Counted from the stretch's first letter, positions 19,077-32,000 are shown. The stretch: DNA of 32,000 nucleotides from Candidatus Thorarchaeota archaeon (GCA_048882505.1 JBHLRO010000011.1:30001-62000); one strand, 5' to 3'. Numbers and translations are program-made. The notes: generated by a model not told the origin, from the letters alone.

Positions 19077-20045
19077 ATGGCAACCATGAAAGGGGATAAA
19101 GCAAGACCCCAAAAAAAGACCCAAGTCGAGGACGAAGAAGAAATCCTCGAATGTAAAAATTGCGGCTCTAATGATATCGTCGCCGACGAAAACCGCGGTG
19201 AACTCATCTGCGAAAAATGCGGCTATGTCCTCGAGACCCGCCTCATCGATGAAGGCCCCGAATGGCGCGCCTTCAACTCCGAAGAACGCGATAAACGCTC
19301 CCGCGTCGGCTCCCCCTCCACCTTCTCAGTTCACGATAAAGGGCTCTCTACCATTATTGGGTATGAGAACCGCGACACCTTCGGCAATAAACTCACCGCC
19401 TCCCGTCGCGCCCAGATTTACCGTCTCCGGAAATGGCAGATCCGTACCCGTGTCCATTCTTCCATGGACCGCAACCTCGCCTTCGCGATGTCCGAAATGG
19501 ACCGCCTGGCATCTCAACTCGGTATCCCCCGGAACGTCAAGGAAACCGCCGCCATCATCTACCGCAAAGCCATCGAAAAACGCCTCGTTCGCGGCCGCTC
19601 CATCGAAGCCATGGTCGCTGCGACCATCTACGCCTCAGCCCGCGTCCGTCGCGTCCCCCGTACCCTCGATGAAATCGCGAAAGAAAGCCGTATCACCAAA
19701 AAAGAACTCGGCCGCTGCTACCGCCTCCTCCTCCGCGAACTCTATCTTAATATCCCTCTCGCGTCCCCCATCGACTATCTCGTCCGCTTCGGCACCGAAC
19801 TCCGCCTCTCTGGCGTCTGTCAACGGAACGCCGCCGATACCCTCAAACGCGCTAAAGCCGCTGGCCTTACCGCAGGCAAAGACCCCACTGGCCTGGCCGC
19901 TGCTGCTATCTACATTTCTGGTATTATCCACGGTGAACGGCGTACTCAACGCGAGATTTCAGAAGTGGCGCATGTGACAGAGGTAACTGTCAGAAACCGA
20001 TATAAAGAGCTGGTACGAAAGCTTAACATTGAGATTACGATTTAA
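19077..20045 (+). CDS. tfb: Transcription initiation factor IIB (TFB)
   Basis: Zn ribbon CKNCG...CEKCG, IDEGPEWRAF, two cyclin repeats, GKDPTGLAAAAIY, TEVTVRNRYKEL. Confidence 0.98.
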   Translation: MATMKGDKARPQKKTQVEDEEEILECKNCGSNDIVADENRGELICEKCGYVLETRLIDEGPEWRAFNSEERDKRSRVGSPSTFSVHDKGLSTIIGYENRDTFGNKLTASRRAQIYRLRKWQIRTRVHSSMDRNLAFAMSEMDRLASQLGIPRNVKETAAIIYRKAIEKRLVRGRSIEAMVAATIYASARVRRVPRTLDEIAKESRITKKELGRCYRLLLRELYLNIPLASPIDYLVRFGTELRLSGVCQRNAADTLKRAKAAGLTAGKDPTGLAAAAIYISGIIHGERRTQREISEVAHVTEVTVRNRYKELVRKLNIEITI

Positions 20046-20205
20046 AACAAGTTTCATCTGACTAGGATCGAATTCTAGTCATTTTAAGAGCCTATTGCCC
20101 GATCAGAAGATCGGGCTTTTTTTTTTCAGATTCATTTACGAAAAAAATCCTGAGATCTTTCCGAGCGTACAGTTGCTTTTTGGAGCGCCCAATCTCACGT
20201 GCTCC
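19977..20205 (+). repeat. tfb-3' repeat unit, copy 1 (the live tfb end + two inverted repeats + HTH remnant)
   Basis: Reference copy: stop at 20043-45, IR1 20060-20080, IR2 20097-20116, T run, conserved tail. Confidence 0.9.
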
Positions 20206-20235
20206 ATCGGTTGCTTTATCAATATTGCGTTCCAT
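20092..20235 (-). pseudogene. 3' remnant of a TnpC/DUF6262-like HTH gene (module 1)
   Basis: ERNIDKA..AREIGRSKKQLYARKDLRIFFVN, homologous to the remnants after copies 2, 3 and 4. Confidence 0.6.
20097..20126 (+). terminator. Hairpin + T10 terminator after tfb
   Basis: GCCCGATC-AGAA-GATCGGGC followed by a T run. Confidence 0.75.
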
Positions 20236-20424
20236 TTTTTGTGGATTTTGATCGATTAAGAGCGATCTAAAGGAATTAATTGGAGATCTCTCCTGCATCT
20301 CGGCGCAAGAATTGTAAAATTTATTGGAAACTCCACAATACTTAAACATACATGACCGCATGTTAATGGGAATAGCTTCTAATCCGTATCTATTCAAATT
20401 CCACATTATGGTTCAACCATTGAG

Positions 20425-21387
20425 ATGGGAGAACAGAAATTGAATCAAATAAGTAACCAAACAGGAGCAATGAAATCCATTGTACTTGGATTTATCCTTA
20501 TTTTCAATCTTATCGGGATTTATATGGGAGTGGAGCTTGCAGGCGTGCCATTTAGCCAGCAGACTAGTTTTACAATCGACAAACAAACTCAATACGGATA
20601 TATTAGAAAATATCCCGCGTTGTATGAATTACTTGTAATGGCAAATGCTTCTAATACCGAAATTATTAATTGTACAGCTTGGGTTGGTGTAAGTGACGTT
20701 CCCCTGACACAAGCATTTCAACTCGGCCCCGGAGATAATTTCTCAACTAGTAAGAGCCTCAATTATTTCTGGTATAGTATTTCTTTCTTCTTTAAGAATA
20801 CCTCGGAACCCCAACGTGTGGATATTAGGATGGAGGGACACTCAGGAACCTTTGAAGAACTTCTTGCTAGTCCTGGTACATTTTATGGAGCGGGAGGTAT
20901 TTTTTATCTCGTTCAGTATATCATTCCAGCTTTAATATCGATAGTCATTCTGGGTCCTATTCACTTTATTAATGCCATGTATAAGTTCACAGAGAGTAAG
21001 CAGGAAGTAGCGAGGTATCTTAGTCAAAATTTCCTTCCTCCATTTATATCATTGATTTTATTCTGGATTACGGGATTTGGGATATTGTTATTGGCAGTTG
21101 GGTATTATTTCGGGGTATTAGTAATAACTAGAATTATAGAAACAGTCCAACCGTTGAAGTCAACCGTAATGGCAACGGGTGGTGTGACATTCTTAGTTAC
21201 TGCCTTCATTTTGGATCGGCTTTATCAACCCTTGACTCCCCAAATCTTTAATGAGCAGGTAATCTGGGGTTTTTTTCCTATCTATCCGCTCATAATCACA
21301 ATAACGGTTTCAGGTATGTTGTTGCTCTTTGTAGGCCTCCCAAGAGGGCAAAACCGAAGCCATAAAACGAGGTTGCATGAAGACTAA
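20425..21387 (+). CDS. Hypothetical polytopic membrane protein with an extracellular domain (cargo)
   Basis: N-terminal hydrophobic segment, soluble domain, ~5 C-terminal TM helices; the 3' end reads into repeat copy 2. Confidence 0.75.
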   Translation: MGEQKLNQISNQTGAMKSIVLGFILIFNLIGIYMGVELAGVPFSQQTSFTIDKQTQYGYIRKYPALYELLVMANASNTEIINCTAWVGVSDVPLTQAFQLGPGDNFSTSKSLNYFWYSISFFFKNTSEPQRVDIRMEGHSGTFEELLASPGTFYGAGGIFYLVQYIIPALISIVILGPIHFINAMYKFTESKQEVARYLSQNFLPPFISLILFWITGFGILLLAVGYYFGVLVITRIIETVQPLKSTVMATGGVTFLVTAFILDRLYQPLTPQIFNEQVIWGFFPIYPLIITITVSGMLLLFVGLPRGQNRSHKTRLHED

Positions 21388-21560
21388 ACATCGCGATTAC
21401 GATTTAGAATGCATCTCATCAGGTTAGATATAATTTCTAACCATCAAAAGGGCCTATTGCCTGACCGAAAAGTCAGGCTTTTTTTTCTCTATTCTTTTAC
21501 GAAGAAGATTCTAAGATCTTTCCGAGACACCAGTAGTTTTTGGAATCAATGATTTCATAC
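21347..21560 (+). repeat. tfb-3' repeat unit, copy 2 (coding part degraded)
   Basis: CTAAACATCGCGATTACGATTTAG (LNIAITI*); IR1 21422-21442; IR2 21459-21478; minus-strand RKDLRIFFVKE. Confidence 0.85.
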
Positions 21561-21619
21561 GGAAGCACAGTGAAGAAAAGCTAATATACCAGATTGGTTA
21601 GCTAAATGTCGCGATCGAT

Positions 21620-21856
21620 TTGGTAAAATGGTCTAGGGACAAGAAGGGCTACAAGCGGTATTCTGATTCAGGAAAAGCTGTTCATCGTCACGTCGCGGAA
21701 TGAAAGCTTGGAAGGAAGTTACAAAAGGGAGAAGTTGTTCATCATATTAACAGGAATAAATCAAACAACCGAAGAAAGAACCTATGGGTCTTTAAGAGCC
21801 AGAAACAACATCATCGAACACATAAACGAGACAAGAAGCGATATGGTCGATGGTAG
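21620..21856 (+). pseudogene. Small HNH endonuclease interrupted by an in-frame TGA at 21701-21703
   Basis: MVKWSRDKKGYKRYSDSGKAVHRHVAE*KLGRKLQKGEVVHHINRNKSNNRRKNLWVFKSQKQHHRTH...; HNH pattern VHR.VAE..LGR.L...EVVHH.N.NK.NN...NL. Confidence 0.8.
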
Positions 21857-21885
21857 AAGGGAGCTAGGGTTCAAAATAAAAGTTC

Positions 21886-23112
21886 TCAATAGACTTTAGC
21901 TGACCTTAATGAACCCTGACACACCGAACATTTGGTCAGGCCCGCCTGTTGGCTTTCTTGATAGCAGTTCTGACAGACTGCACGTTGACAAGACGCACAC
22001 ACCTGATGTGGATCCTTTTTCGGGTAGAACCTTAGGCATAGGCTGCAAAAAAACCGATCTTTTGCCTTTAGAATTTCCACTTGTTCCGCAGGCACATACT
22101 CAATGGTCTGGGAACCTACGGAATACAACGGCGCCAGTTCGACGTTTTGCTCCCGAATGGTTTGCAGAATACAGAGGATTTCCTGGGCATGGGAGAGAGT
22201 GGGATCGGGAATAGAATCCCCGAATACTTTTGTGATGGTGGGGGTGATGAAAGTATCGATTAAATTCTTTATGGTGTCACCTGCCAGCTGAAAAAGACCC
22301 ACAAGCGGATTTTCCGATGGAGGGTCGTAAGTTCGAACATAATTATCCGTGATTTTTGTCACATTCTCAATAGTTAGCTCGGGCGGATCAGGGATTGGCA
22401 ATTTCCAGTTATCATGGACTAGGATGTCTTCCAAAGAGATTTTTTCAGCTACCGGGAGGTCTGAAAGGTATTGACGGATTTCCGCATCTAGTTCCTTTTT
22501 CCGGATGTCATCGAGATCCGTGGTTTTGGGGAGATGCAGGCGTCTTTCCTTATAATAGGTCATGCCGACCCTTGTGGATAGGATTCCTAAACGACATTCC
22601 CTGGCGAGTTCGAGTAGGGAAACCGTTTCACTCGATGTCGGTTGATTCTTCAGTCTGTGATGCGTTTGGATAATTCGCACCACATTGATTTCGATCTCAG
22701 ATCTGTCAAAAAGATCATAATAATCGGAAATTTTCTTTTCGGATAACTGGATCACGGTATTACAGAAATTAACGAGCTCTCGCCCATTAGAGAGCGAATA
22801 ATTGAGTCTGATGACGATATCCGTTAAGTTCAATTGGTCATTCTTGATAAACGGGAGAATTAAGATGGATTGAGCATCTAATTGCTGGATTTGGTCTTGA
22901 GTATATTTTTTCAATTGTTTGGGTCTAGGCGGGTGATTGAAGTAATGGATTACCTCGTCTAAGGATGCAGAAGGTATTTTCAGGTCTAAAAACATTTCCT
23001 CATTGGTAGGCAACCGCTGGTGCTCATACACAAAGTGAAAAATACGGGTAGAGAATTCATCTAGCTCGTTACTAGGAAGAGAATACTGTTTCTCCCGTTT
23101 GAACAATCTCAT
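21886..23112 (-). CDS. Hypothetical protein with helical/winged-helix-like repeats and a C-terminal 8-Cys (RING/FYVE-like) Zn finger
   Basis: 408-aa ORF; CSLC-x12-CASC-x4-CQNC-x11-CSVC. Confidence 0.7.
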   Translation of the reverse strand: MRLFKREKQYSLPSNELDEFSTRIFHFVYEHQRLPTNEEMFLDLKIPSASLDEVIHYFNHPPRPKQLKKYTQDQIQQLDAQSILILPFIKNDQLNLTDIVIRLNYSLSNGRELVNFCNTVIQLSEKKISDYYDLFDRSEIEINVVRIIQTHHRLKNQPTSSETVSLLELARECRLGILSTRVGMTYYKERRLHLPKTTDLDDIRKKELDAEIRQYLSDLPVAEKISLEDILVHDNWKLPIPDPPELTIENVTKITDNYVRTYDPPSENPLVGLFQLAGDTIKNLIDTFITPTITKVFGDSIPDPTLSHAQEILCILQTIREQNVELAPLYSVGSQTIEYVPAEQVEILKAKDRFFCSLCLRFYPKKDPHQVCASCQRAVCQNCYQESQQAGLTKCSVCQGSLRSAKVY

Positions 23113-23256
23113 CGTGAACCCTCTCGTGGTTCATGAGTTACGAAAAATCGGTTTATTACTTTAACCACACTAGTAATACAAATCCAGGGGGCGAAACCAC
23201 TTTGATAGGAGCAGGTGAATTAGCAGTTTTATAAATGTAAAAATTGATATTGAGTT

Positions 23257-23712
23257 ATGGCATTGAGGGTGCGCATCGGGATTATCTTCCTTACTCTTGC
23301 CCTTCTTATTGGAGGATCACCCTATCCACTGGCAGGCGCCTTATCGGGGTCATATTCTACTACTCTCTTGCAAGGTACCGATCATGAATTTGAAATGACA
23401 TTCACCTGGGAGATTGATCATACCTTCTGGATGGGCGGGGATACGTATGATGTGCGTTTAGGACGGTACATGAAAAATATCGGGGGAAACAGCTTTCAGG
23501 GAACCTATGCCTTTTATTTAGGGGTGGAGAATATTACCGCCTTCTCCATGTTTATGGGAGGGTCAGTAATCGCAACAGAGCCCTCAATTATTACCAAACC
23601 TCTAACGCTTGGAAAAAAAGAATCAAATTTCTATCTAGAAACCTTCTTGCGTATTAAACTTGAGGTAAATGATGATGTGTATGGGATTTACCATGAGACG
23701 GAGGCTCATTGA
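23257..23712 (+). CDS. Hypothetical secreted protein
   Basis: Signal peptide, beta-rich body; same strand and 25 nt from the next gene. Confidence 0.6.
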   Translation: MALRVRIGIIFLTLALLIGGSPYPLAGALSGSYSTTLLQGTDHEFEMTFTWEIDHTFWMGGDTYDVRLGRYMKNIGGNSFQGTYAFYLGVENITAFSMFMGGSVIATEPSIITKPLTLGKKESNFYLETFLRIKLEVNDDVYGIYHETEAH

Positions 23713-23737
23713 GTATGGCTGATCGGAGGAAAGGTGA

Positions 23738-24769
23738 TTGAAACAAAAACTAGGGATCACTGGATTGGTTCTCTTAGGCATTATGGTCGTGATATTCGCG
23801 AATCAGGCAGTACTAGCCTCAGTTCATCGCGAAGAGGAACATAAAATTGTCATCACAGCGATGACGGGCACCCAGTATGATAAGAAGGCTATAAAACTCC
23901 AGAAAAATACATTGTATGAAATTACGTTTTGGAATAATGAGACTGGGGTATGGCATGATCTCATCATTGCCATGGATGGTCGGAGAATTGCCAATTATGA
24001 AGCAATGTATCCAAAAAATGGAGATATTGTGCTGGGTCCGCTTCCTGTTGAAGCCAGCGCAAACAACGCTGGGGGAACAGGCACAAGTGTTTGGACTGGT
24101 AATTTTACTACGCCAGATAGTAACGGGTATATTCGATTCTTCTGTTCGTATGCGGGCCACTTTGATGCAGGAATGAGGGGCTATTTCAAAATAGGTGAAC
24201 CTGCGGGGGAGCTTTCTCCAGAATTCGACTTTAAGTTTCAGTTACTTAATGACTCAGCAGCATGGCTCTCGGATTACGAAGGTAATCCCATAATACTAGA
24301 CTTTTTCAGTATGAACTGTCAAGATTGTTTAACTCAGTTCTCGTATTATCGGGAGGCCCAGAATGTTTACCCATATGTTCAGATAGTCTCCATTTCAATA
24401 GATCCGTATCAGGATTCCAGTGACTACAACGATTATCTCTCCAATATTAGCCAGTTCGTGTCTGATTATCAAATGACCTGGACAGTGGGTCATATCTTTG
24501 GCTATACACAGGGACTACCATTTCATCCTATTACGGCTCCAACAATAGTTTTTATCGACTCCAACGGGGAGACATTTCACGAAGCGCATGAGGTCACTCC
24601 TTACCCGATATTGGCGGAATGGATTGAAAGGGGGGATTCTGGAACTTCAAACGCTACAGCCAGTCTACCAAGTCAAGTTATAAGTCCAGGCTGGACGTTT
24701 CCATTGCTTCCACTGATTGTGCTAATCCCTCTTTTCGATAGATGGCTGAATCGCAACAAGGTAATTTAA
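23738..24769 (+). CDS. Exported cupredoxin + thioredoxin-like (TlpA/SCO-type) fusion with C-terminal anchor
   Basis: Signal peptide; WHD His plus CSYAGHFDAGM (C-x4-H-x4-M) type-1 Cu site; DFFSMNCQDC CxxC domain; hydrophobic C-terminus. Confidence 0.8.
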   Translation: MKQKLGITGLVLLGIMVVIFANQAVLASVHREEEHKIVITAMTGTQYDKKAIKLQKNTLYEITFWNNETGVWHDLIIAMDGRRIANYEAMYPKNGDIVLGPLPVEASANNAGGTGTSVWTGNFTTPDSNGYIRFFCSYAGHFDAGMRGYFKIGEPAGELSPEFDFKFQLLNDSAAWLSDYEGNPIILDFFSMNCQDCLTQFSYYREAQNVYPYVQIVSISIDPYQDSSDYNDYLSNISQFVSDYQMTWTVGHIFGYTQGLPFHPITAPTIVFIDSNGETFHEAHEVTPYPILAEWIERGDSGTSNATASLPSQVISPGWTFPLLPLIVLIPLFDRWLNRNKVI

Positions 24770-24775
24770 GCGCCT

Positions 24776-25000
24776 GCTGAGGTGACCGTCAGAAACAGAT
24801 ATAAAGAGCTAGTGAGGAAGTTAAATATCGAAATTATCATTTAACTCCATTCTAATCTGACTAGAGTGAATTTCTAGTTGATTGAAGAGCCTATGGCCCG
24901 AACGGAAGCTCGGGCCTTTTTTTGTTGACAAAATATTTCCTGAGATCCTTCTGAGTATAGATTTGTTTTTTGGAGCATCCGATTTCACGCGCTACTGCGG
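24776..25000 (+). repeat. tfb-3' repeat unit, copy 3 (best preserved)
   Basis: EVTVRNRYKELVRKLNIEIII* (24779-24844); IR1 24859-24879; IR2 24895-24916. Confidence 0.92.
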
Positions 25001-25130
25001 GTACGTTTGGTTTTCCCCTCGTCCCTCCAAAGTCTTAATTGCTTCTTTCACTATTTCAACAGTTCTCGATTTACAACCATAAGAATGTATTTTCAGTTTA
25101 TCGAGGTTTTTTAGGACCACAAGATCCAGA
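24890..25130 (-). pseudogene. Frameshifted TnpC/DUF6262-like HTH gene remnant (module 3, longest)
   Basis: NLDKLKIHSYGCKSRTVEIVKEAIKTLEGRGE / KPNVPAVAREIGCSKKQIYTQKDLRKYFVNKK, with a 1-nt frameshift near 25010-25015. Confidence 0.65.
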
Positions 25131-25158
25131 ATTTGGCCTAGCAGTAATAGGGAAAAAT

Positions 25159-27618
25159 TCAGTTAATTCTATGACCTCGTTTTTCTATCACTTCTCTGAT
25201 TCCCTTTATTGTTACACTTTCTTTATTAAAAGCTATGACCATCGTTTTTGTCTGAGAGTCACCTTCCACACTGTTTATTCCTGAAACTTTCAGAAGGGCA
25301 TTTGTAAGACCATTCACACACCCTTGGCAATGAATAGTTGGAATTGAGAAGGATATTGATCCCATTTCTGGTACTGAGGCTCCTTGCTCCTCTTCAAGTG
25401 CTGTTACCTCCTGATTGGAGAGAATTTTGCCACCAAAAGAATTCAAGAGAACAGTTGTAACACTAGCCGCCATCGCAAGCATTGCAAAGACTGGATGAAG
25501 CAAGCCCGTGACTGCCAGTGGGACACCGATCCCATTAAACGAAAACGCGAGACCAACGTTTTGTTTAGTTTTGCTATAACTGGTTTTCCCGATCTCATAA
25601 GCATCAACCACACCTGAGATGTTGTCATGAACTAAAATGACATCTGCTGATTCAATCGCAATATCGGTGCCTGCCCCAATGGCGATCCCAACATTCGCTT
25701 GCATTAACGCTGGGGCATCATTAATACCATCACCCACCATCGCTACTCTTTTTCCCTGCTTTTGGAGGTTACGGATCTGTTCCGCTTTTTCTTGAGGCAG
25801 GACTTCGGCAATAACTTGGTCAATGCCCGCCTGTTTGGCAATAGCTTCAGCAGTGCGTTTATTATCGCCAGTGATCATTACTGACTCCAGTCCAACACGT
25901 TTCATTCTTAGTATACCCTCCTTAGCAGAAGGCTTGAGTGTATCAGCAATACCAATGAGCCCTATCAGATTAAAACCTTGTGCTACTCCAACCACAGTTT
26001 GTCCTTCTTTTTCTAGGGTATAGATATTTTCTTTCAGATGGTGAAGGGCAATCCCTTTTTCCATCAAAAAACGAGGGCTACCTACCCTAACTTCCGAAGA
26101 CCCAACAGACCCGATTACGCCAAACCCTGGTTTAATTTCAAAATCCTCTATTTTATTGGAAGTAAGAGCATAATTTTTTGCGTGAGCATAGTCCATGATA
26201 GCTCGGGCTAAGGGGTGCTCAGAATTTTGTTCAATACTAGCTGCCAATGAAATAACCTCATTTTCATCGTACCCGCCCATTGGATAAACAGTAACGACGC
26301 GGGGTTTCCCTTCTGTGATGGTCCCAGTTTTATCAAGTGCTACCACAGTGACATCTTTAAAAACCTGAAATGCTTCTCCCGAACGCATTAGAATGCCATG
26401 CTGAGCTGCCAGGCCGCCGCCGCGAATCATGGCTAAAGGCGTGGCCATTCCAAGAGCACAAGGATAACCCATGACCAAGACAGCTAAAGTGGTAAAAATC
26501 GCGGTCTGAAATTGAACTTCTCCAGAGACAAGCCACGCCCCTCCTGTCCAAAGGAGGAACGCAAAAGCGGCGAAGAGTAATACACCTGGGACAAAAATCT
26601 TTAAGACTTTTTCTACCGTTTGAAGAATACTTGGTTTCAAGGCCCGAGCTTCTTGAATGGATCTAGAGACTTGTTGCAGAAAACTGTCTTGGCCTACTTT
26701 AGTAGTTTCAATGACCAATGCACCATACTGGTTTAATGAACCCCCAATCACCTCATCGCCTTTTTCTTTAATAACGGGCATGGATTCACCTGTCACGAGA
26801 CTCTGATCAATCGTGGATTTACCTTCTTTGACCAAACCATCGATGGGAATACTCTCCCCAGGACGAACACGGACAAGGTCTCCTGTTTGAACCTGTTCGA
26901 TTGGAATTTCCTCTTCAATTCCGTTTCTAATTACCCGTGCTGTAGCAGGTTGTAGATTCATCAATTTCCGAATGGCCTGAGAGCTGTTAGTCCTAACTAG
27001 CAGTGAAATATATCCCGAAAGGATATGATAGGCCGTGATATAGATCGCCGCGCCCATAAAATCGGCCATCGGCCAAGGTTGAACAAAAAACCCGATCAGG
27101 CCGCCAAACAACCCTCCTAAGGCTCCAAATTCCATTAGGACATGCTGATTCAAAATCCCTCTTCTGAGTGACGCATAAGCCATCCTTAAGATAGGCCCGC
27201 CCACAATGAAGATCATGGTTAATGTTAACCCGAGGATGGCCCATGGAAACCAGGCTGGCTTTATCCCAAACCAGATCAAGGCCATAAAACCAAGAGTAAG
27301 AACACCGATTAGAGTGGTAACACTGAGTTGCCGACGATGACGCCGTAGTTCTTCCTCATCTTCCTCAAAGCTCTTAGGTTTGGTGGGATCACGGATGGAG
27401 TAACCAATACTCCGAATGGTTTCTCTGAGTTCTGCGGGAGTCGCTTTCGTGGGATCGTACTCAATTAAGGTTTCTTCGTGGGACAGATTGACCCCAACAT
27501 GGGAGACTCCTTCGATTCTTCGAAATGCTTTCTTAATACTTTCAACACAAAACGAACATTGCATTCCACCAATTTTCAAAAGCAGATTTGCCTTTCGTTT
27601 CACCGATTTTTCGGCCAT
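25159..27618 (-). CDS. copA: Copper-translocating P1B-type ATPase
   Basis: N-terminal GMQCSFC HMA; TGES; CPC; DKTGT; GDGINDAPAL; C-terminal HCQGC HMA; likely start at ATG 27618. Confidence 0.95.
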   Translation of the reverse strand: MAEKSVKRKANLLLKIGGMQCSFCVESIKKAFRRIEGVSHVGVNLSHEETLIEYDPTKATPAELRETIRSIGYSIRDPTKPKSFEEDEEELRRHRRQLSVTTLIGVLTLGFMALIWFGIKPAWFPWAILGLTLTMIFIVGGPILRMAYASLRRGILNQHVLMEFGALGGLFGGLIGFFVQPWPMADFMGAAIYITAYHILSGYISLLVRTNSSQAIRKLMNLQPATARVIRNGIEEEIPIEQVQTGDLVRVRPGESIPIDGLVKEGKSTIDQSLVTGESMPVIKEKGDEVIGGSLNQYGALVIETTKVGQDSFLQQVSRSIQEARALKPSILQTVEKVLKIFVPGVLLFAAFAFLLWTGGAWLVSGEVQFQTAIFTTLAVLVMGYPCALGMATPLAMIRGGGLAAQHGILMRSGEAFQVFKDVTVVALDKTGTITEGKPRVVTVYPMGGYDENEVISLAASIEQNSEHPLARAIMDYAHAKNYALTSNKIEDFEIKPGFGVIGSVGSSEVRVGSPRFLMEKGIALHHLKENIYTLEKEGQTVVGVAQGFNLIGLIGIADTLKPSAKEGILRMKRVGLESVMITGDNKRTAEAIAKQAGIDQVIAEVLPQEKAEQIRNLQKQGKRVAMVGDGINDAPALMQANVGIAIGAGTDIAIESADVILVHDNISGVVDAYEIGKTSYSKTKQNVGLAFSFNGIGVPLAVTGLLHPVFAMLAMAASVTTVLLNSFGGKILSNQEVTALEEEQGASVPEMGSISFSIPTIHCQGCVNGLTNALLKVSGINSVEGDSQTKTMVIAFNKESVTIKGIREVIEKRGHRIN

Positions 27619-27775
27619 ATTTCTTTCGACTCTAAAATAAAATTTCAAAGAAGGGTTTTAAATTCTCTAGTATGAATTTCCTAAACGCTGTAAATAAGAA
27701 TACAAAGAAGATGGCTCCTAAACTCCTTTTAGAAATCACTTCAAAGATATCGTACATCAAAAAAGGAAAAATTGA

Positions 27776-28000
27776 ACTGAATTTACGGTCAGAAATCTCT
27801 ACAAAGAGCTGGTACTGAAGCTAAACATTGAGATTACAATTTAAATTGGATTTGATCAAACTTGAATGAAAATCAAGTCGTTTAATGAGTTTACTTCCCG
27901 ATCAAGTGATCGGGCGTTTCTTTTTCTTATTTATTGACAGAAAACTGCCGTAATTCCTTTCTAGTATAGAGCTGCTTTTTGGAACAAACGTTTTCATAGG
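27776..28000 (+). repeat. tfb-3' repeat unit, copy 4
   Basis: TEFTVRNLYKELVLKLNIEITI* (27776-27844); IR1 27859-27879; IR2 27897-27914; minus-strand VAYENVCSKKQLYTRKELRQF. Confidence 0.9.
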
Positions 28001-28055
28001 CGACTTTTTAGGCGCTATCGAACTCATCCATAGTTTGTTGCCATCCTAGATTGAT

Positions 28056-28592
28056 CTAATTCATTATCCTAAGATTGATTTCTTGGAGGAATGAATCAAG
28101 AAATTGCTGCAGCTCAGGTCTAGGCTCAGGTTGCGTAATATCAATTCCTAATGGTTGAAATCGATGTGTTTGGACGGAAGTCTCTACTATGAGGTATACA
28201 AAGTACTCAGATCTTTTTCCTTGGATTTCCCATCGAATATCAGTGATTTCAGGCCTATAAATAGTTTTAATACGTTTTATATTCCAAAACCACCATCCAA
28301 TCTGAATTTTATCGTTTTCTGCTACTATCCCAAATCGAGAGAGAAAAAAGCTTGTCATCAAGGTAGCAAGCAAACATCCAAATGCACTGAAGAAGAGACC
28401 AAAGGTTATTGTAAAATTGCTCAGAAGAAAGCCAATCAGCTCTGATACAAAAAAGACGAAAAAGGCAATAACGACAATATAAGGACCTTTTCTTGGTATG
28501 ACGCTTTTGTGAATAGGGGAGATAATAGAGATTTTAGTTTGATTTCCAAATTTAATTGTTTCAAAAGAAAATGTCCGATCCAAGTCAATCAT
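28056..28592 (-). CDS. Hypothetical membrane protein (2 TM + possible PH-like domain)
   Basis: 178-aa ORF with two hydrophobic helices and a beta-rich C-terminus. Confidence 0.65.
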   Translation of the reverse strand: MIDLDRTFSFETIKFGNQTKISIISPIHKSVIPRKGPYIVVIAFFVFFVSELIGFLLSNFTITFGLFFSAFGCLLATLMTSFFLSRFGIVAENDKIQIGWWFWNIKRIKTIYRPEITDIRWEIQGKRSEYFVYLIVETSVQTHRFQPLGIDITQPEPRPELQQFLDSFLQEINLRIMN

Positions 28593-28596
28593 CCTT

Positions 28597-29529
28597 TTAC
28601 ATTGGGTTGTAAGAGCTGTCGGGATAGGGTGTCAAGAGGATTTGTGAATCGTTCCCCGTATTCCCATCAATCTTTTCATTTCCCAAGTAAATGGAAGTTG
28701 TCCCTAGAGTCTTCCACTCCCCTAATCCGCCAGAATGGACAAGCCAGGTGACTTCATCAAGGAGAACAAATCTTTTCAGGCTTTTTATCGCAAACTGATT
28801 ATGGTAAACCGTCTTAATACCCTCAAAGGAAGTATATACTGGTGAATTCACATAATCTATGAAAACCATATTGTATCCCCAAATATCCTTACCTGAAGAC
28901 GCGCCTAGCCATATTTCACCTAAATCTAAAAATTCAGCTGTTTCCAGAGCACCAGATGACAGGATCAATTCTTTTGAGACATCTACGGAATCATGCCCTC
29001 CATCTACCCGAAAAAAGAACATGGGTTCATTAGGGGATTCCCAGGCATATTCGCTATGAGAGGCATTCCACCCCTGTTCATCTTCCAAGAGAATTGAATA
29101 CTCATAAAGCGCAATTACGTAAAAATGATGGGCAATTGCAATGGCTTGATAAGCTGATTTGGGGTCAAAGTAACTGTACACCACGAGACGCGCCTCATTC
29201 AATCTGCCTTGAGTATCTGGGCAGAAATGGAACTCAGGACGACAATATAATCTCATCGCCATGTCCCCATCCATTGTCTCAATACCTTCGTACAAATAGG
29301 ATTTGCTTCGATTAAAGCTTAGGTATGGGAATGATGATCCTCCATAAAGCCTCAATCCATCTGAAGGAGCACTCGGTTGCAGGTTTGTTAGACTTACAAT
29401 AACTGAGGCCACCAGAATAAATCCTAATAGTAAAACAAGTGGCACCTTATCTTCTCTAACAATTCTTCGAATCTCATCATACATTGCCGAAGCCCCTCTC
29501 GATTTACGGAACCTGTATCCTCCAGGCAC
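28597..29529 (-). CDS. Hypothetical membrane-anchored/secreted protein
   Basis: 310-aa ORF with an N-terminal TM segment; 4 nt from the next gene; the start may be the later ATG (MYDEIRR). Confidence 0.65.
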   Translation of the reverse strand: MPGGYRFRKSRGASAMYDEIRRIVREDKVPLVLLLGFILVASVIVSLTNLQPSAPSDGLRLYGGSSFPYLSFNRSKSYLYEGIETMDGDMAMRLYCRPEFHFCPDTQGRLNEARLVVYSYFDPKSAYQAIAIAHHFYVIALYEYSILLEDEQGWNASHSEYAWESPNEPMFFFRVDGGHDSVDVSKELILSSGALETAEFLDLGEIWLGASSGKDIWGYNMVFIDYVNSPVYTSFEGIKTVYHNQFAIKSLKRFVLLDEVTWLVHSGGLGEWKTLGTTSIYLGNEKIDGNTGNDSQILLTPYPDSSYNPM

Positions 29530-29630
29530 AGTTTGTAATAGTGATGAGGAGAAGTGATATCAGATCACAATTAAAACGTTTCCCACCTTTATTATTCGTA
29601 CTCAGTCTCCCCAGTTGTTTCCTTAAAGGC

Positions 29631-29800
29631 CAAGCTACGGCCAGAAACCGATATAGAGAGTTAGTACGGAACCTGAATATCGAGATTACCATTTAAAACA
29701 ACTTTCATGGGACTAGGAGTAAATTCTAGTTATTCTAAGAGTCTATTGCCTGATCGAAATCTCAGGCTTTCTTTTTTCTATCCTCTCGTGAAATCTTCAG
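29631..29800 (+). repeat. tfb-3' repeat unit, copy 5
   Basis: QATARNRYRELVRNLNIEITI* (29631-29696); IR1 29711-29731; IR2 29748-29767. Confidence 0.9.
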
Positions 29801-30093
29801 GATTTTTTTAGTTCGAGGAAAATCATAGTGATTAAGCCTTGCCACCAGTTACTTCCGAATTTGGTGGCATATTGTTTATTGGAAAGCCATAGACGTTCCA
29901 TATACCCGTCAAAGACATCCGAGACGGTCATTACGATAATAATGACGAAAAACAAGCCTGGAACAGTAGTCACAAATTGATGTAAGGGACTATGTTCGGC
30001 CAAATGTGACCACAAAAGGACTAATCCAATATAGAAATGTCTTCTTTTTAGGGAATAATTCCGTTCTAGGGAAAGCAACGTTGGCGGATTCAT
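29797..30093 (-). CDS. Small hypothetical membrane protein
   Basis: 98 aa with 2-3 hydrophobic segments; ends against repeat 5. Confidence 0.45.
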   Translation of the reverse strand: MNPPTLLSLERNYSLKRRHFYIGLVLLWSHLAEHSPLHQFVTTVPGLFFVIIIVMTVSDVFDGYMERLWLSNKQYATKFGSNWWQGLITMIFLELKKS

Positions 30094-30263
30094 TTTTGGA
30101 AAACCTCCGACTCATTTTGATAGCTGTTTTAGGTATCATAATTCGCGATACAATATTTTTTTGTTTTATGAACTCTAATCTATAGTATATCCTACCAGAA
30201 GCTCACTGTTAGATTCAGCAGGTTACTGGGGGCCAATTCCAGGTATTCTATTCAGCCTTTGAG

Positions 30264-30473
30264 TTAGGATCTTGTTCCTCTTATCAGGAGCACTCCAACG
30301 ATTAAAAAGCCAACCCCCCAAACTGACCAGGGGATCATCGCTGTTGGATCGAAAGGTAACTTAAGCATCAATCCTCTCGTTGTAAATAAGAATAGGAATA
30401 AAGCAATGCTAATTAGTCCCCATCCCAGAATCATGGTATAGGTGAGCTGAAATTCCTCCTTTGGTTCTTTCAC
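30264..30473 (-). CDS. Small two-TM hypothetical protein
   Basis: 69 aa with two clear TM helices. Confidence 0.55.
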   Translation of the reverse strand: MKEPKEEFQLTYTMILGWGLISIALFLFLFTTRGLMLKLPFDPTAMIPWSVWGVGFLIVGVLLIRGTRS

Positions 30474-30573
30474 CGCAATCCCTGCAATCCTTGATCTTAG
30501 GTATAGGGAATTAGACCTTTAAAAATTCATGCATTTTTTCATCTGTTGTTTCTTTTTGGAATCTGATTCAATT

Positions 30574-30685
30574 CTTAAATATCAAGGTTCGGGTTGTGTG
30601 CGTTCCAACAAGAGTTCCTACAGTTATCTGAGAAGCCTATTGCCTGATTGAAGAAAAAGCACTCTCTTTTATCTTCCTCAGATCT
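30574..30685 (+). repeat. Possible highly degraded repeat copy 6
   Basis: TTAAATATCAAGGTT (LNIKV vs LNIEI); GAAGCCTATTGCCTGAT matches the IR2 left flank; minus-strand DLRK; IR1 and the right arm of IR2 are lost. Confidence 0.5.
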
Positions 30686-30912
30686 GGGTAGTGGGGGGGA
30701 GTGAAGGTTGGGAGACGATTCGTTTTTGGCCAAAGATTTTTAAATCAGATTTAGCTACCATGGGACTAAATCTTTTCACCGTGAGAAGGAGGATTGTTGA
30801 GTGTGGCGGATCTAAAGACAGAAATCCATGATAACCTCCTGTACAATCTTGGTATTCCCTTATTGAGCCTGATTGCTGTTTTGAAATCGGTCTTCGGAGG
30901 GGATGCGTAAAA

Positions 30913-32000
30913 ATGAAAAGGAAAGCGTTCTTTCTATTACTAGGACTGAACATTCTTTTTCTTTTACTTCCTATAAGTCTAATGAATATCTCAGATACTA
31001 ATCCTGAATCTGTTTTGGCTGCGCCTACAGCGCCTACTATCGATTCCCTAGTTATTATCCACACCCAATCGACCGATTTTGTGGGCTACGTGATTGGGGC
31101 CTTTCGAAACTGGTATAATGCTAAGTACGGGATTTCCATCATAGTCGATAACATTGAAATGACCTCTTCTGCTGCCTCAGCTCAGGTTTCGACCTGGGGT
31201 GGTGCTCCACTTGCCGACGTTTGGTGGGGGGGAGGAGAGTTTGAGTTTGAGATACGTCGGAACGAAGGAGGTCTTTTAGAACCTTACCGCGTTTTGGAAG
31301 ATGTGAATATCGCTTCATATTTATCCGGATGGCATTTGAAAGATGATTCGGGTGACTTTAGCGATCCTGTCTGGTATGGCGCGGCCCTTTCAGGATTTGG
31401 AATCATGTATAATACCGAATACCTGGCTGCCAACGGATTGGAGATTCCGAGAACGTGGGGCGATTTAACTAACCACTCGTACAAAGGACACATTACGATG
31501 GCTAGTCCACAGTTTAGTGGCTTAACTACCGCGACAGTGAAAATGCTACTTCAAGAGTTTAACACTCAAGCAGATAGTGGTAAGCTGGATTATAGCGGAA
31601 ATGCATCAGAAGGGTGGAGTTTCTGGGCGAAAATAGCAGGAAACATGGGAGAATTTGCATCATCTAGCTCCAAGGTTCCCCGAAACGTGTTTGAAGGAAC
31701 TTATGGGATTGGCATTACGATTGATTATTTCGCCTGGGATTATATCGCGTTGAGCTCAGCGATCGGATTCACATATGGTGGGGTATCCACCTTCAGCCCA
31801 GACCCTGCGGCTGTGCTTACTGGTGCACCAAACATGGTTCAAGGGAAACGGTTCATGGATTATCTTACGAGTACCGAAGGACAGGTCAAGCTAGGTAAAT
31901 ATCGAATTCCTGTCAATAGAGAAGCGGTCCCTGAAAGTACTCGGATCCCGCGAGCGTGGGATGCCACAGGAAACATTAATCCGATGTTTCCATTGCTTGA
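30913..32000 (+). CDS. ABC transporter substrate-binding protein (Fe3+/thiamine AfuA-like), 3'-truncated; absent from the ORF track
   Basis: MKRKAFFLLLGL signal; ADVWWGGG; GFGIMYN; IPRTWGDL..HSYKGHITMASPQFSG; GITIDYF; PDPAAVLTGAPN; frame stays open to the window end. Confidence 0.9.
   Translation, partial: MKRKAFFLLLGLNILFLLLPISLMNISDTNPESVLAAPTAPTIDSLVIIHTQSTDFVGYVIGAFRNWYNAKYGISIIVDNIEMTSSAASAQVSTWGGAPLADVWWGGGEFEFEIRRNEGGLLEPYRVLEDVNIASYLSGWHLKDDSGDFSDPVWYGAALSGFGIMYNTEYLAANGLEIPRTWGDLTNHSYKGHITMASPQFSGLTTATVKMLLQEFNTQADSGKLDYSGNASEGWSFWAKIAGNMGEFASSSSKVPRNVFEGTYGIGITIDYFAWDYIALSSAIGFTYGGVSTFSPDPAAVLTGAPNMVQGKRFMDYLTSTEGQVKLGKYRIPVNREAVPESTRIPRAWDATGNINPMFPLL

Follow-up and report, generated by a model that had tools for sequence, protein, structure and literature searches.

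Direct repeats of the 3' end of a target gene, together with tandem stacking, are the classic picture of islands inserted in tRNA genes. In fungal mitochondria, mobile endonuclease ORFs, the so-called mORFs, bring a replacement C-terminus to a gene, and the native one is left downstream (PMC3630166). Gene hybrids with such a C-terminal duplication have been described for atp6 of Allomyces macrogynus and for atp6, atp9, cox2 and nad3 of Glomus (PMC3630166), and partial C-terminal duplications of cob and atp6 are accompanied by degenerate LAGLIDADG/GIY-YIG ORFs (PMC6279837). A second precedent is the intronless homing of phage T4 (PMC2988022). Among Asgard archaea, the mobile element HeimM2 of Candidatus Heimdallarchaeum has a homing-endonuclease homologue, for which its authors suggest a co-option for site-specific integration next to a conserved gene, 16S rRNA/tRNA (PMC8813620).

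The locus described here belongs to a member of the Hodarchaeales (Asgard). In a 32,000-nt stretch of its DNA (the window), the end of tfb, the gene for transcription factor B, is repeated in an array that is probably the decayed record of serial homing into the tfb 3' end, by modules made of a LAGLIDADG endonuclease-like gene (HEG) plus cargo. As with the fungal mORFs, a conserved essential gene has a LAGLIDADG endonuclease gene (here a predicted one) at its 3' end, the C-terminus in use is a replacement, foreign in the mORFs and putatively so in tfb, while the native C-terminus stays downstream as an untranslated remnant, and the distribution is patchy among close relatives, with endonuclease ORFs that degenerate with time. 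Unlike the mORFs, the tfb case is found in a cellular archaeal chromosome and not in an organelle, its HEG is on the opposite strand with no in-frame fusion and has additional N- and C-terminal HTH domains, the modules hold up to 6 kb of cargo each, and the invasions are stacked up to around ten deep, in a 19-kb accessory island. With the phage systems it shares a HEG that is free-standing between genes and whose product would cut a conserved gene close by where genomes lack the HEG; its spread would presumably depend on break repair, flanking markers being co-converted, and polymorphism of the host allele is the likely protection. The phage enzymes are of the GIY-YIG and HNH types, in contrast to LAGLIDADG at tfb, and the phage cases have no duplication of the target gene end, stacking or cargo cassettes, whereas the tfb arrays have all three. 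Tandem islands in tRNA genes, which depend on tyrosine recombinases, are alike in their direct repeats of the target 3' end, tandem build-up and accessory cargo, but the integrase, their defining feature, was sought at the tfb arrays and not found. HeimM2 is similar in being from an Asgard archaeon and in having a homing-endonuclease homologue beside a conserved gene, but its target, genus and protein are different, and the passages on HeimM2 report neither repeated gene ends nor cassette arrays (PMC8813620).

Repeats of the tfb end and their cargo

The repeat unit spans the final ~66 nt of tfb and ~150 nt located 3' of the gene, and was established as a direct repeat through repeat finding, MAFFT, whole-genome BLAST and nhmmer. 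An earlier note on this DNA had claimed such repeats, which turned out to be real and more extensive than proposed, with 5-6 copies in the window and 4 more past its end (window-equivalent positions 32758, 34602, 36819 and 38694), around 10 in total over 19 kb. They are confined to the tfb locus, and neither BLAST nor nhmmer detected scattered copies elsewhere in the 4.3-Mb genome. The displaced copies share 61-82% identity with the live one (D0), and their nhmmer E-values range between 1e-52 and 1e-58. The features are:

19077-20045, plus strand: tfb, live transcription factor B gene, 322 aa (Pfam TFIIB 5.7e-43, Zn_Ribbon_TF 1.6e-19)
19932-20045, plus strand: last 37 codons of tfb, candidate conversion tract with foreign-looking codon usage
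19980-20217, plus strand: D0, live repeat copy, reference of the repeat family (MAFFT, nhmmer)
19980-20045, plus strand: tfb tail within D0
20059-20081: hairpin 1 within D0
20097-20126: hairpin 2, with a T-run, within D0
20425-21387, plus strand: cargo of cassette 1, a 320-aa ORF of no Pfam family, its 3' end running into D1
21342-21556, plus strand: D1, displaced copy with decayed coding part, stops in the tail reading frame (nhmmer E 1.2e-52)
21886-24769: cargo of cassette 2, a 408-aa ORF (minus strand), a 151-aa ORF (plus strand) and a 343-aa thioredoxin-like AhpC/TSA protein (plus strand)
24779-25013, plus strand: D2, displaced copy (nhmmer E 2.8e-58)
25159-27648, minus strand: cargo of cassette 3, a heavy-metal (CopA-type) P-type ATPase, 829 aa (Pfam E1-E2_ATPase 2.3e-51, HMA 2.1e-24, Hydrolase 3.2e-35)
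27779-28007, plus strand: D3, displaced copy (nhmmer E 3.6e-57)
28056-29529, minus strand: cargo of cassette 4, 178-aa and 310-aa ORFs of no Pfam family
29631-29845, plus strand: D4, displaced copy (nhmmer E 4.7e-56)
30574-30652, plus strand: degraded D-like fragment, hairpin-2 region only, of a 31-nt repeat family (nhmmer E 0.05)
30913-32000, plus strand: next cargo, a solute-binding protein gene (Pfam SBP_bac_6 4.9e-15) that runs off the window

The common left edge that had been noticed for the copies was confirmed at or near the EVTV codons, ~66 nt before the tfb stop, and it recurs in other species. The compact layout was also as described, with the gene at 20425-21387 reading into D1 and the stop at 24769 abutting D2. 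The fragment at 30574-30652 sits within a second repeat family ('U'), so its role as a module border is doubtful. Cargo genes occur in both orientations, and the 408-aa gene of cassette 2 has a copy in a related genome (G016) with 93% identity and different neighbours. The 320-aa ORF of cassette 1 is unrelated to TFB.

An assembly artefact is an unlikely source of this layout. The order of the array, for which the note had called for an assembly check, was upheld in two ways: the probable source run, assembled independently, gave one 15.9-kb contig across 19488-32000, and a run from a different study has pieces at least 99% identical that connect cassette 1 with D1, CopA with D3 and cassette 4 with D4. 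The same architecture was present in at least 8 genomes from different projects. Contigs of relatives do break at the repeats (C137 of G016, C101 of G021) and variant junctions were found in samples of the same study, as a mixture of strains would produce; against the single contig, the junctions of the other study and the shared architecture, we give that origin of the array hardly any credence.

An endonuclease-like gene family behind tfb

Read on the minus strand, the right-hand ~65 nt of D0, D2 and D3 code for the C-terminal HTH of a protein family limited to the genus (HEG), whose remnants are:

20125-20217, minus strand: C-terminal HEG remnant (HTH tail) in D0, profile positions 597-627 (family-profile hmmsearch, i-E 4.1e-5)
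21477-21542: weak HEG-tail remnant in D1
24918-25013, minus strand: HEG remnant in D2 (i-E 1.5e-8)
27939-28007, minus strand: HEG remnant in D3 (i-E 0.0011)

A family-profile search found no intact member in this genome, so the mechanism has to be read from its relatives. Of 14 tfb loci of the genus, defined by a TFB at least 94% identical, 7 have the gene intact and convergent, at 100-2000 nt behind tfb, at least 5 have a remnant of it and at least 2 lack it, which is a presence/absence polymorphism with degenerate copies; C-terminal remnants are present in this genome (G000) and in G013, G007, G021 and G012. The family was detected in 10 of the 21 genomes of the genus and in none of 62 from other genera of the class, a patchy, genus-restricted spread that resembles that of selfish HEGs.

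The Pfam profile LAGLIDADG_3 matches 12 of 27 family members (best 5.9e-6), and residues G131-D132-G133 and D225-D226 (P0001:265-737) are invariant in the 27 sequences. In an AF2 model of the family (pLDDT 85) the GDG and DD motifs close helices 120-132 and 209-226, with a strand after each, in such a way that these conserved acids at the ends of the LAGLIDADG helices are candidate catalytic residues. Foldseek matched the model to I-DmoI (target TM 0.5-0.58, probability 1.0), PI-TkoII, PI-SceI and PI-PfuI. With two motifs in a predicted, I-DmoI-like double-domain fold of the order alpha-beta-beta-alpha-beta-beta-alpha, and with invariant acids, the family looks like a LAGLIDADG endonuclease, to which extra N- and C-terminal HTH domains are added. 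A shorter paralogue shows conserved synteny elsewhere, so the family members need not all be selfish. The remnants of several lineages end at nearly the same profile position (591-600), a common break-point that independent decay does not predict and that hints at an extra step, either site-specific or bounded by homology.

A probably replaced end of tfb and the search for recombinases

TFB is 94-96% identical to its orthologues across the genus, and four more distant paralogues of the gene are on other contigs of the genome. Within tfb, the fraction of C-ending codons falls from 0.58 to 0.11 after codon 285 (Fisher p = 2.4e-8), a change-point whose score was matched by 0 of 2000 permutations. 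This break is 111 nt from the end of the gene and precedes the repeat border by 45 nt, as a conversion tract would predict. The displaced tails keep a three-base periodic, coding-type conservation, and their differences from the live tail are mostly synonymous (13 synonymous and 1 non-synonymous changes in D2, 9 and 3 in D3, and 10 and 5 in D4). Judging from the overall values (pS 0.76 vs pN 0.15), the displaced tails are former coding ends. A donor lineage for the replacement end was sought and none was identified. Taken with the layout of a related locus (L137, below), the codon-usage break and the tail divergence fit a replacement of the gene end by recombination.

The earlier note had explained the array through successive integrations of elements whose recombinase genes would have eroded. 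In such a model, each element would bring a replacement end, and a tyrosine or serine recombinase would act on an att site within the 3' end of tfb. Repeats of a gene 3' end that delimit cargo, in the manner of attL/attR sites restoring the target gene, agree with this proposal, as do the tandem stack of modules and the fairly constant left border. We consider it improbable, since the recombinase families that the note had proposed to look for beside tfb-3' fragments are not in the arrays: PF00589 has a single match in the genome, on another contig (C5) outside the array, and none in the arrays of five relatives, PF00239 has none in the genome, array contigs included, and the array contigs of G003, G018, G016, G021, G007 and G012 have no match to either, save one 14 kb upstream of tfb in G007. 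In ~35 modules there are remnants of HEGs, and none of an integrase was seen; the gene that did erode within the repeat is of the LAGLIDADG-like family, intact behind tfb in relatives. Moreover, repeat length and borders vary by species (left at -27, -54 or -66, right at +30 to +150), and the codon-usage break is outside the repeat, both pointing to homologous repair rather than to a crossover at a fixed core.

The two hairpins of the repeat, whose pairing is preserved by compensatory changes and whose spacing is constant, could suggest an integron-like platform, in which the repeat would be a folded attC-like site for a recombinase encoded elsewhere. Small cassettes with typical accessory genes (glyoxalase, DinB, GNAT, PIN, methyltransferase) and some junctions at the right edge of the repeat are in line with it. 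Nevertheless, this platform is very improbable, since cargo is found on both strands, in contrast to the one-orientation cassettes of integrons, the PF00589 and PF00239 searches returned no integron integrase or candidate recombinase, and the tails are conserved as coding sequence. Besides, the downstream part of the repeat is not the same in other species, where another hairpin overlaps the stop codon, so that inherited tfb terminators fit the hairpins better than a dedicated recombination site.

Cassettes in relatives and probable serial homing

Comparable arrays, with other cargo, follow tfb in sister species of the genus, and tail arrays were found in 5 of 14 same-genus tfb loci vs 0 of 33 other Asgard tfb loci. 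Comparison of the regions downstream of tfb, suggested in the note as a check, showed that they are not invariant: cargo varies by species, and the repeats bound cassette-level differences, such as an occupied/empty pair in which L054 has a PIN cassette and L056 an empty site, or an extra 580-nt cassette in G016. The proposal that insertions came one after another at a hotspot, the tfb 3' end, holds, with a spare gene end per insertion. In L137 a tail of variant B is followed by an intact HEG, 5.5 kb of cargo and a displaced tail of variant A, and the order of live tail, HEG, cargo and displaced tail, which is that of a mORF-type gene-end replacement, is shared by L137, L087 and L057; the window keeps the tail-cargo-tail order with the HEG reduced to remnants. 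Variant B is defined by clustered synonymous changes in YKELVRKL, and live variant-B tails are only found beside intact HEGs of one subfamily, another (L057, L087, L241) adjoining ordinary variant-A tails. This link between tail variant and HEG is confounded by phylogeny, with few independent contrasts. Site-specific cleavage of tfb tails that lack the HEG is predicted, the distinct tail variant beside intact genes being an indirect hint of it.

The repeats could alternatively provide portable homology only. Tail copies of one genome, or those in DNA from relatives, would then recombine by the ordinary homologous route and so add, remove or exchange cassettes, with no dedicated nuclease involved and the LAGLIDADG gene a passenger or a regulator. 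Apparent crossovers at various points inside the repeats that bound cassette differences speak for it, and so does the syntenic paralogue. The small cassettes of 0.6-2 kb (PIN, 580-nt unit) have no HEG and may indeed move by recombination between repeats alone; since the PIN cassette is common to L054 and L094 at genome-typical divergence, L056 could have lost it by deletion between repeats, rather than L054 having gained it. As an account of the whole array we find this rather unlikely, because it leaves unexplained the origin of the first tail duplication, the tie between HEG and tfb tail in seven loci, always convergent, the HEG remnants with tails in five lineages and the variant-B tail that accompanies intact HEGs.

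In serial homing, which we favor, the full module would be that seen in relatives: a live tfb tail, a short terminator region, an opposite-strand HEG converging on tfb, 1-6 kb of cargo and an older, displaced tfb tail. The endonuclease would cut a tfb tail that lacks the module, and the break would be repaired by homologous recombination from a module-bearing relative, with the conserved tfb body as the homology arm on the left and, on the right, the distal tail copy of the module as a portable arm. The recipient would acquire a new tail, probably resistant to the cut, plus HEG and cargo, its old tail being shifted downstream, and repeated rounds would stack modules with the newest nearest tfb. 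HEGs would decay later, and cassettes could be lost or rearranged when tail copies recombine; in this genome, the ~30 final codons that make up the right end of each repeat would be all that is left of the HEGs. Nuclease activity, cut site, homing as the insertion route and co-mobilization of cargo are all putative in this scheme. It is also possible, though we advance it tentatively, that the tail array is a working gene-capture platform of the Hodarchaeales, in which HEGs aimed at the essential, slowly evolving tfb would ferry arbitrary cassettes between species with the spare tails as universal homology arms; if true, it would be a functional counterpart of integrons and tRNA islands that works without a site-specific recombinase.

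A practical lesson is that gene-end repeats behind conserved genes, where no integrase is found, invite a look for decayed endonuclease genes. The family itself is a new, predicted one of LAGLIDADG enzymes flanked by HTH domains, for which the tfb tail is a defined candidate target. If serial homing holds, a mechanism of fungal mitochondria and phages would be extended to cellular chromosomes, where invasions could stack and carry cargo, a basal transcription factor would have been the target of a selfish endonuclease that built a 19-kb island with metal efflux, redox, transport and toxin genes, and the archaeal lineage closest to eukaryotes would have an integrase-free route for horizontal gene flow.

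The tfb tail array and its recurrence among relatives

The earlier note had proposed that direct repeats of the tfb 3' end each delimit unrelated cargo in either orientation, and this layout was indeed seen, with four added copies past the window end. As listed below, the repeats comprise the last ~66 nt of tfb and ~150 nt downstream; window-equivalent positions continue the window numbering past its end.

Features of the tfb region
Upstream of tfb: housekeeping genes RimK, RadA and PAC2
19077-20045: tfb, encoding TFB (Pfam TFIIB, 5.7e-43, and zinc ribbon), with the live repeat copy D0 at its end
21342, 24779, 27779, 29631: displaced repeat copies D1 to D4
30574: degraded repeat piece
Between copies, in the window, either strand: 320-aa ORF; 408-aa ORF, 151-aa ORF and thioredoxin-like protein; CopA-type ATPase; two ORFs without family; solute-binding protein (SBP)
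Window-equivalent 32758, 34602, 36819, 38694: four extra copies (BLAST, nhmmer)
Cargo past the window end: CpXC protein, methyltransferase and DUF3592 protein, then MFS, AHSA1, DinB, glyoxalase and HxlR genes

The array totals about ten copies over 19 kb, with copy scores declining with distance from tfb. When the repeat unit was searched by BLAST and nhmmer across the whole 4.3-Mb genome, all copies were found on the tfb contig alone and none was scattered elsewhere. Among the cargo, the 320-aa ORF of cassette 1 (20425-21387) was considered as a diverged TFB paralogue and discarded, similarity to TFB being absent in BLASTP. The 408-aa protein (21886-23112, minus strand) is without Pfam family, and its gene is 93% identical in the related genome G016, there adjoining the SBP gene. 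A further repeat family, named U, whose members are 73-85% identical and about 100-350 nt long, has copies at window 30454-30810 and window-equivalent 33757-33988 (L052 1757-1988) and 34856-34953 (L052 2856-2953) that precede three cargo genes in the distal array part; the degraded tail-like piece (30574-30652) is inside a ~130-nt insertion of the first of them.

The assembly was also checked. When the probable source run was assembled independently, a single contig spanned 19488-32000, and a run from a second study holds pieces at least 99% identical that span three cassette-to-repeat junctions, so that an assembly artefact is an unlikely origin of the array; this public-run evidence consists of contigs, which cannot reveal circles or excision. 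Contigs of two public-run assemblies, X1 and X3, match up to window 27770 (the left edge of D3) and continue with unrelated sequence, suggesting that in a population variant, or in a related organism, a different neighbour lies to the right of the CopA cassette. The "joints" listed for X1 are later repeat copies of one contig aligning to D2.

Across the genus, TFB is 94-96% identical, and the flanking genes are far less conserved. Extra tail copies were detected in the following loci, the tfb-bearing metagenome contigs (L134-L139) being mostly too short to reveal arrays.

Extra tail copies downstream of tfb in relatives
G003, L094: 3
YT2_065, L087: 2
G018, L057 and L043: at least 5
G021, L064: at least 1
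G013, L054: 1
G016: at least 6
G012: at least 4
Metagenome contig L137: 1

As a control, 144 archaeal tfb loci were each searched for their own tail. Downstream copies were found in 5 of the 14 loci whose TFB is 90% identical or more, against none of 33 from other Asgard archaea and 2 of 95 that are more distant. The comparison of downstream regions showed variable content and one site without an array: cargo varies by species (SBP_5, PIN toxin, beta-lactamase fold, MBL fold, GNAT, DUF998), and in one clade every array lies between tfb and one shared MBL-fold gene, which in B3_Heim (L056) directly follows tfb. L056 is ~94.5% identical to L054 and lacks its 0.98-kb PIN cassette, whose borders are formed by a 93-bp repeat that spans -27 to +66 relative to the stop; the L054 repeats give a mosaic pattern when resident and foreign copies are sorted, and the difference may be a gain or a loss. 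G016 carries an additional 580-nt unit exactly at the last copy of the present genome, and the two genomes, compared from the 408-aa gene to the SBP gene, have breakpoints at 23178 and about 31042, off the repeat borders.

Contents of the repeat and proposed replacement of the tfb end

The repeat has three parts, namely the tfb tail, two hairpins with a T-run, and a last stretch of ~65 nt. In 25 displaced tails from eight genomes, with the live tail of the present genome as reference, pS was 0.76 and pN 0.15, and the D2 tail alone showed 13 synonymous changes and one non-synonymous. Long-dead pseudocopies could not retain such a pattern, and the displaced tails therefore diverged while in use as gene ends. 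Several of them, in three species, have TGA or TAG two codons upstream of YKELVRKL (L094 13891, L087 17950, L043rc 3991, L094 15346), where live tfb has Arg.

In the hairpins 82% of cells pair, compared with 22-45% in slid controls, and 7 of 15 pairs carry compensatory changes, as many as were reached in 6 of 500 shuffles. Hairpins and T-run agree with inherited terminators lying between convergent genes. The downstream part of the repeat is different in other species, where a hairpin overlaps the stop codon. Rfam (E up to 1) and ARAGORN gave nothing in the array region, which rules out the repeat as a known RNA gene or tRNA-type target. Translated on the minus strand, the last ~65 nt of D0, D2 and D3 yield a conserved peptide of HTH-like type that ends near the T-run; D1 and the copy at 32758 encode it more weakly.

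The live gene shows a clear discontinuity: codons ending in C make up 0.58 of the total through codon 285 and 0.11 beyond it (Fisher p = 2.4e-8; 0 of 2000 permutations). The change point is located 45 nt upstream of the border of the repeat, a position that would be expected of a conversion tract and not of a crossover at a fixed att core. The share in the body (window 19077-19931) is itself unusually high, neighbouring housekeeping genes having 0.26-0.35 and the tfb orthologues of other species 0.1-0.4. Comparison of body and tail identity over 13 orthologues gave zero signal as to the donor of the tail.

Live tails are of two synonymous variants, A and B, within YKELVRKL..EITV. Where the flank is known, which leaves aside L139, live variant B was found only beside intact putative homing-endonuclease genes (HEGs) of one subfamily (L058, L134, L135, L137, L138 and L230). 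It also occurs in displaced tails of G012 that adjoin HEG remnants, the remaining live and displaced tails being variant A or intermediate. In two clades defined by the TFB N-terminus, which provide few independent contrasts, the HEG-remnant genome has variant A and the HEG-bearing relatives B. One HEG subfamily adjoins variant-A tails. In L137 the order is live B tail, HEG, 5.5 kb of cargo and displaced A tail, which is the full product predicted by homing.

A LAGLIDADG-like family behind tfb

The minus-strand peptide of the repeat corresponds to the C-terminus of 500-750-aa ORFs that follow tfb closely on the other strand in G018, YT2_065, G010, G020 (two contigs) and the metagenome contigs L134, L135, L137 and L138. 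The family makes up 30 clusters in a collection of 5.8 billion proteins, where all source-named clusters are labelled Hodarchaeales or Heimdallarchaeota, and within the genus 10 of 21 genomes have it, against none of 62 from the other genera of the class. One member, P0001, gave by itself only a weak HTH_26 match in Pfam (E up to 10) and zero phmmer matches in the PDB. Across the family, 12 of 27 members match LAGLIDADG_3 and several match HTH families, two helices end in residues that are invariant in the alignment, GDG and DD, and an AF2 model (pLDDT 85) resembles PI-TkoII, I-DmoI, PI-SceI and PI-PfuI. Based on these LAGLIDADG_3 matches, invariant residues and fold matches, the family is predicted to be a LAGLIDADG protein of the double-motif type with HTH domains on both sides, an assignment for which single sequences are insufficient and which rests on family alignment and fold search.

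C-terminal HEG remnants lie alongside tfb tails in the present genome, from which an intact HEG is absent, and in G013, G007, G021 and G012; in several lineages they end at nearly one position (profile positions 591-600). The earlier note had read the array as integrative elements with eroded recombinase genes, a view that the gene content speaks against: no PF00589 or PF00239 gene was found on any array contig, except for one PF00589 match 14 kb upstream of tfb in G007, and the remnants beside the tails, where recombinases had been sought, are of the LAGLIDADG family. The present genome has one Xer-like gene, located elsewhere, and no resolvase-type gene.

In two species, the modules with an intact HEG (L087 11142-16802 and L057 11122-16774) also encode a KaiC/AAA_25-like ATPase, an XPD/DinG-like protein (Helicase_C_2) and, from an ORF located between tfb and the HEG, a product of 176-195 aa; these may be cargo or may belong to the machinery of the element itself. 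A shorter paralogue of 409-426 aa, without the C-terminal HTH tail, occurs in conserved synteny beside an LPG-synthase-like gene (LPG_synthase_TM) in two species, at L236 1522-2751 (minus strand; G001:C96) and L234 1474-2754 (minus strand; G007:C52), and also in G014:C411. One in-frame stop was read in two of its three copies in the genome search. The paralogue may have been domesticated at its separate site or be decaying there.

Proposed mechanism and known systems

By analogy with the mORFs of fungal mitochondria (PMC3630166, PMC6279837) and intronless homing (PMC2988022), we infer that the tfb end is replaced by HEG homing, with both nuclease and target predicted. The putative endonuclease would cut a tail without the module, and repair would copy tail, HEG and cargo from the donor. 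The sequence to the right of the break would pair with the copy of the tail that ends the donor module, and the old tail would be pushed downstream. Repeated invasions would stack modules while their HEGs decay, and recombination between tails would delete or reshuffle cassettes. For small cassettes without a HEG, homologous recombination by itself may suffice for movement. The left border near -66, common to many copies in several species, could be a founder junction or the cut. Weak points of the homing scheme are the lack of an intact HEG in the present genome, the similar position at which remnants break, the one subfamily beside variant-A tails, the small cassettes that have no HEG, and the possible loss in L056.

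No description of this system was found in the literature on Asgard or TFB with integrase or LAGLIDADG. The portions of Wu et al. (PMC8813620) consulted present HeimM2, an element of Heimdallarchaeum whose homologue of homing endonucleases may have been co-opted for integration, and do not describe the tfb-tail system. The mechanism has clear precedent, the closest known system being the fungal mitochondrial mORF with C-terminal duplication; in contrast to it, the present one is found on a cellular archaeal chromosome, with a convergent free-standing gene bearing extra HTH domains, multi-gene cargo and stacking up to about ten deep.
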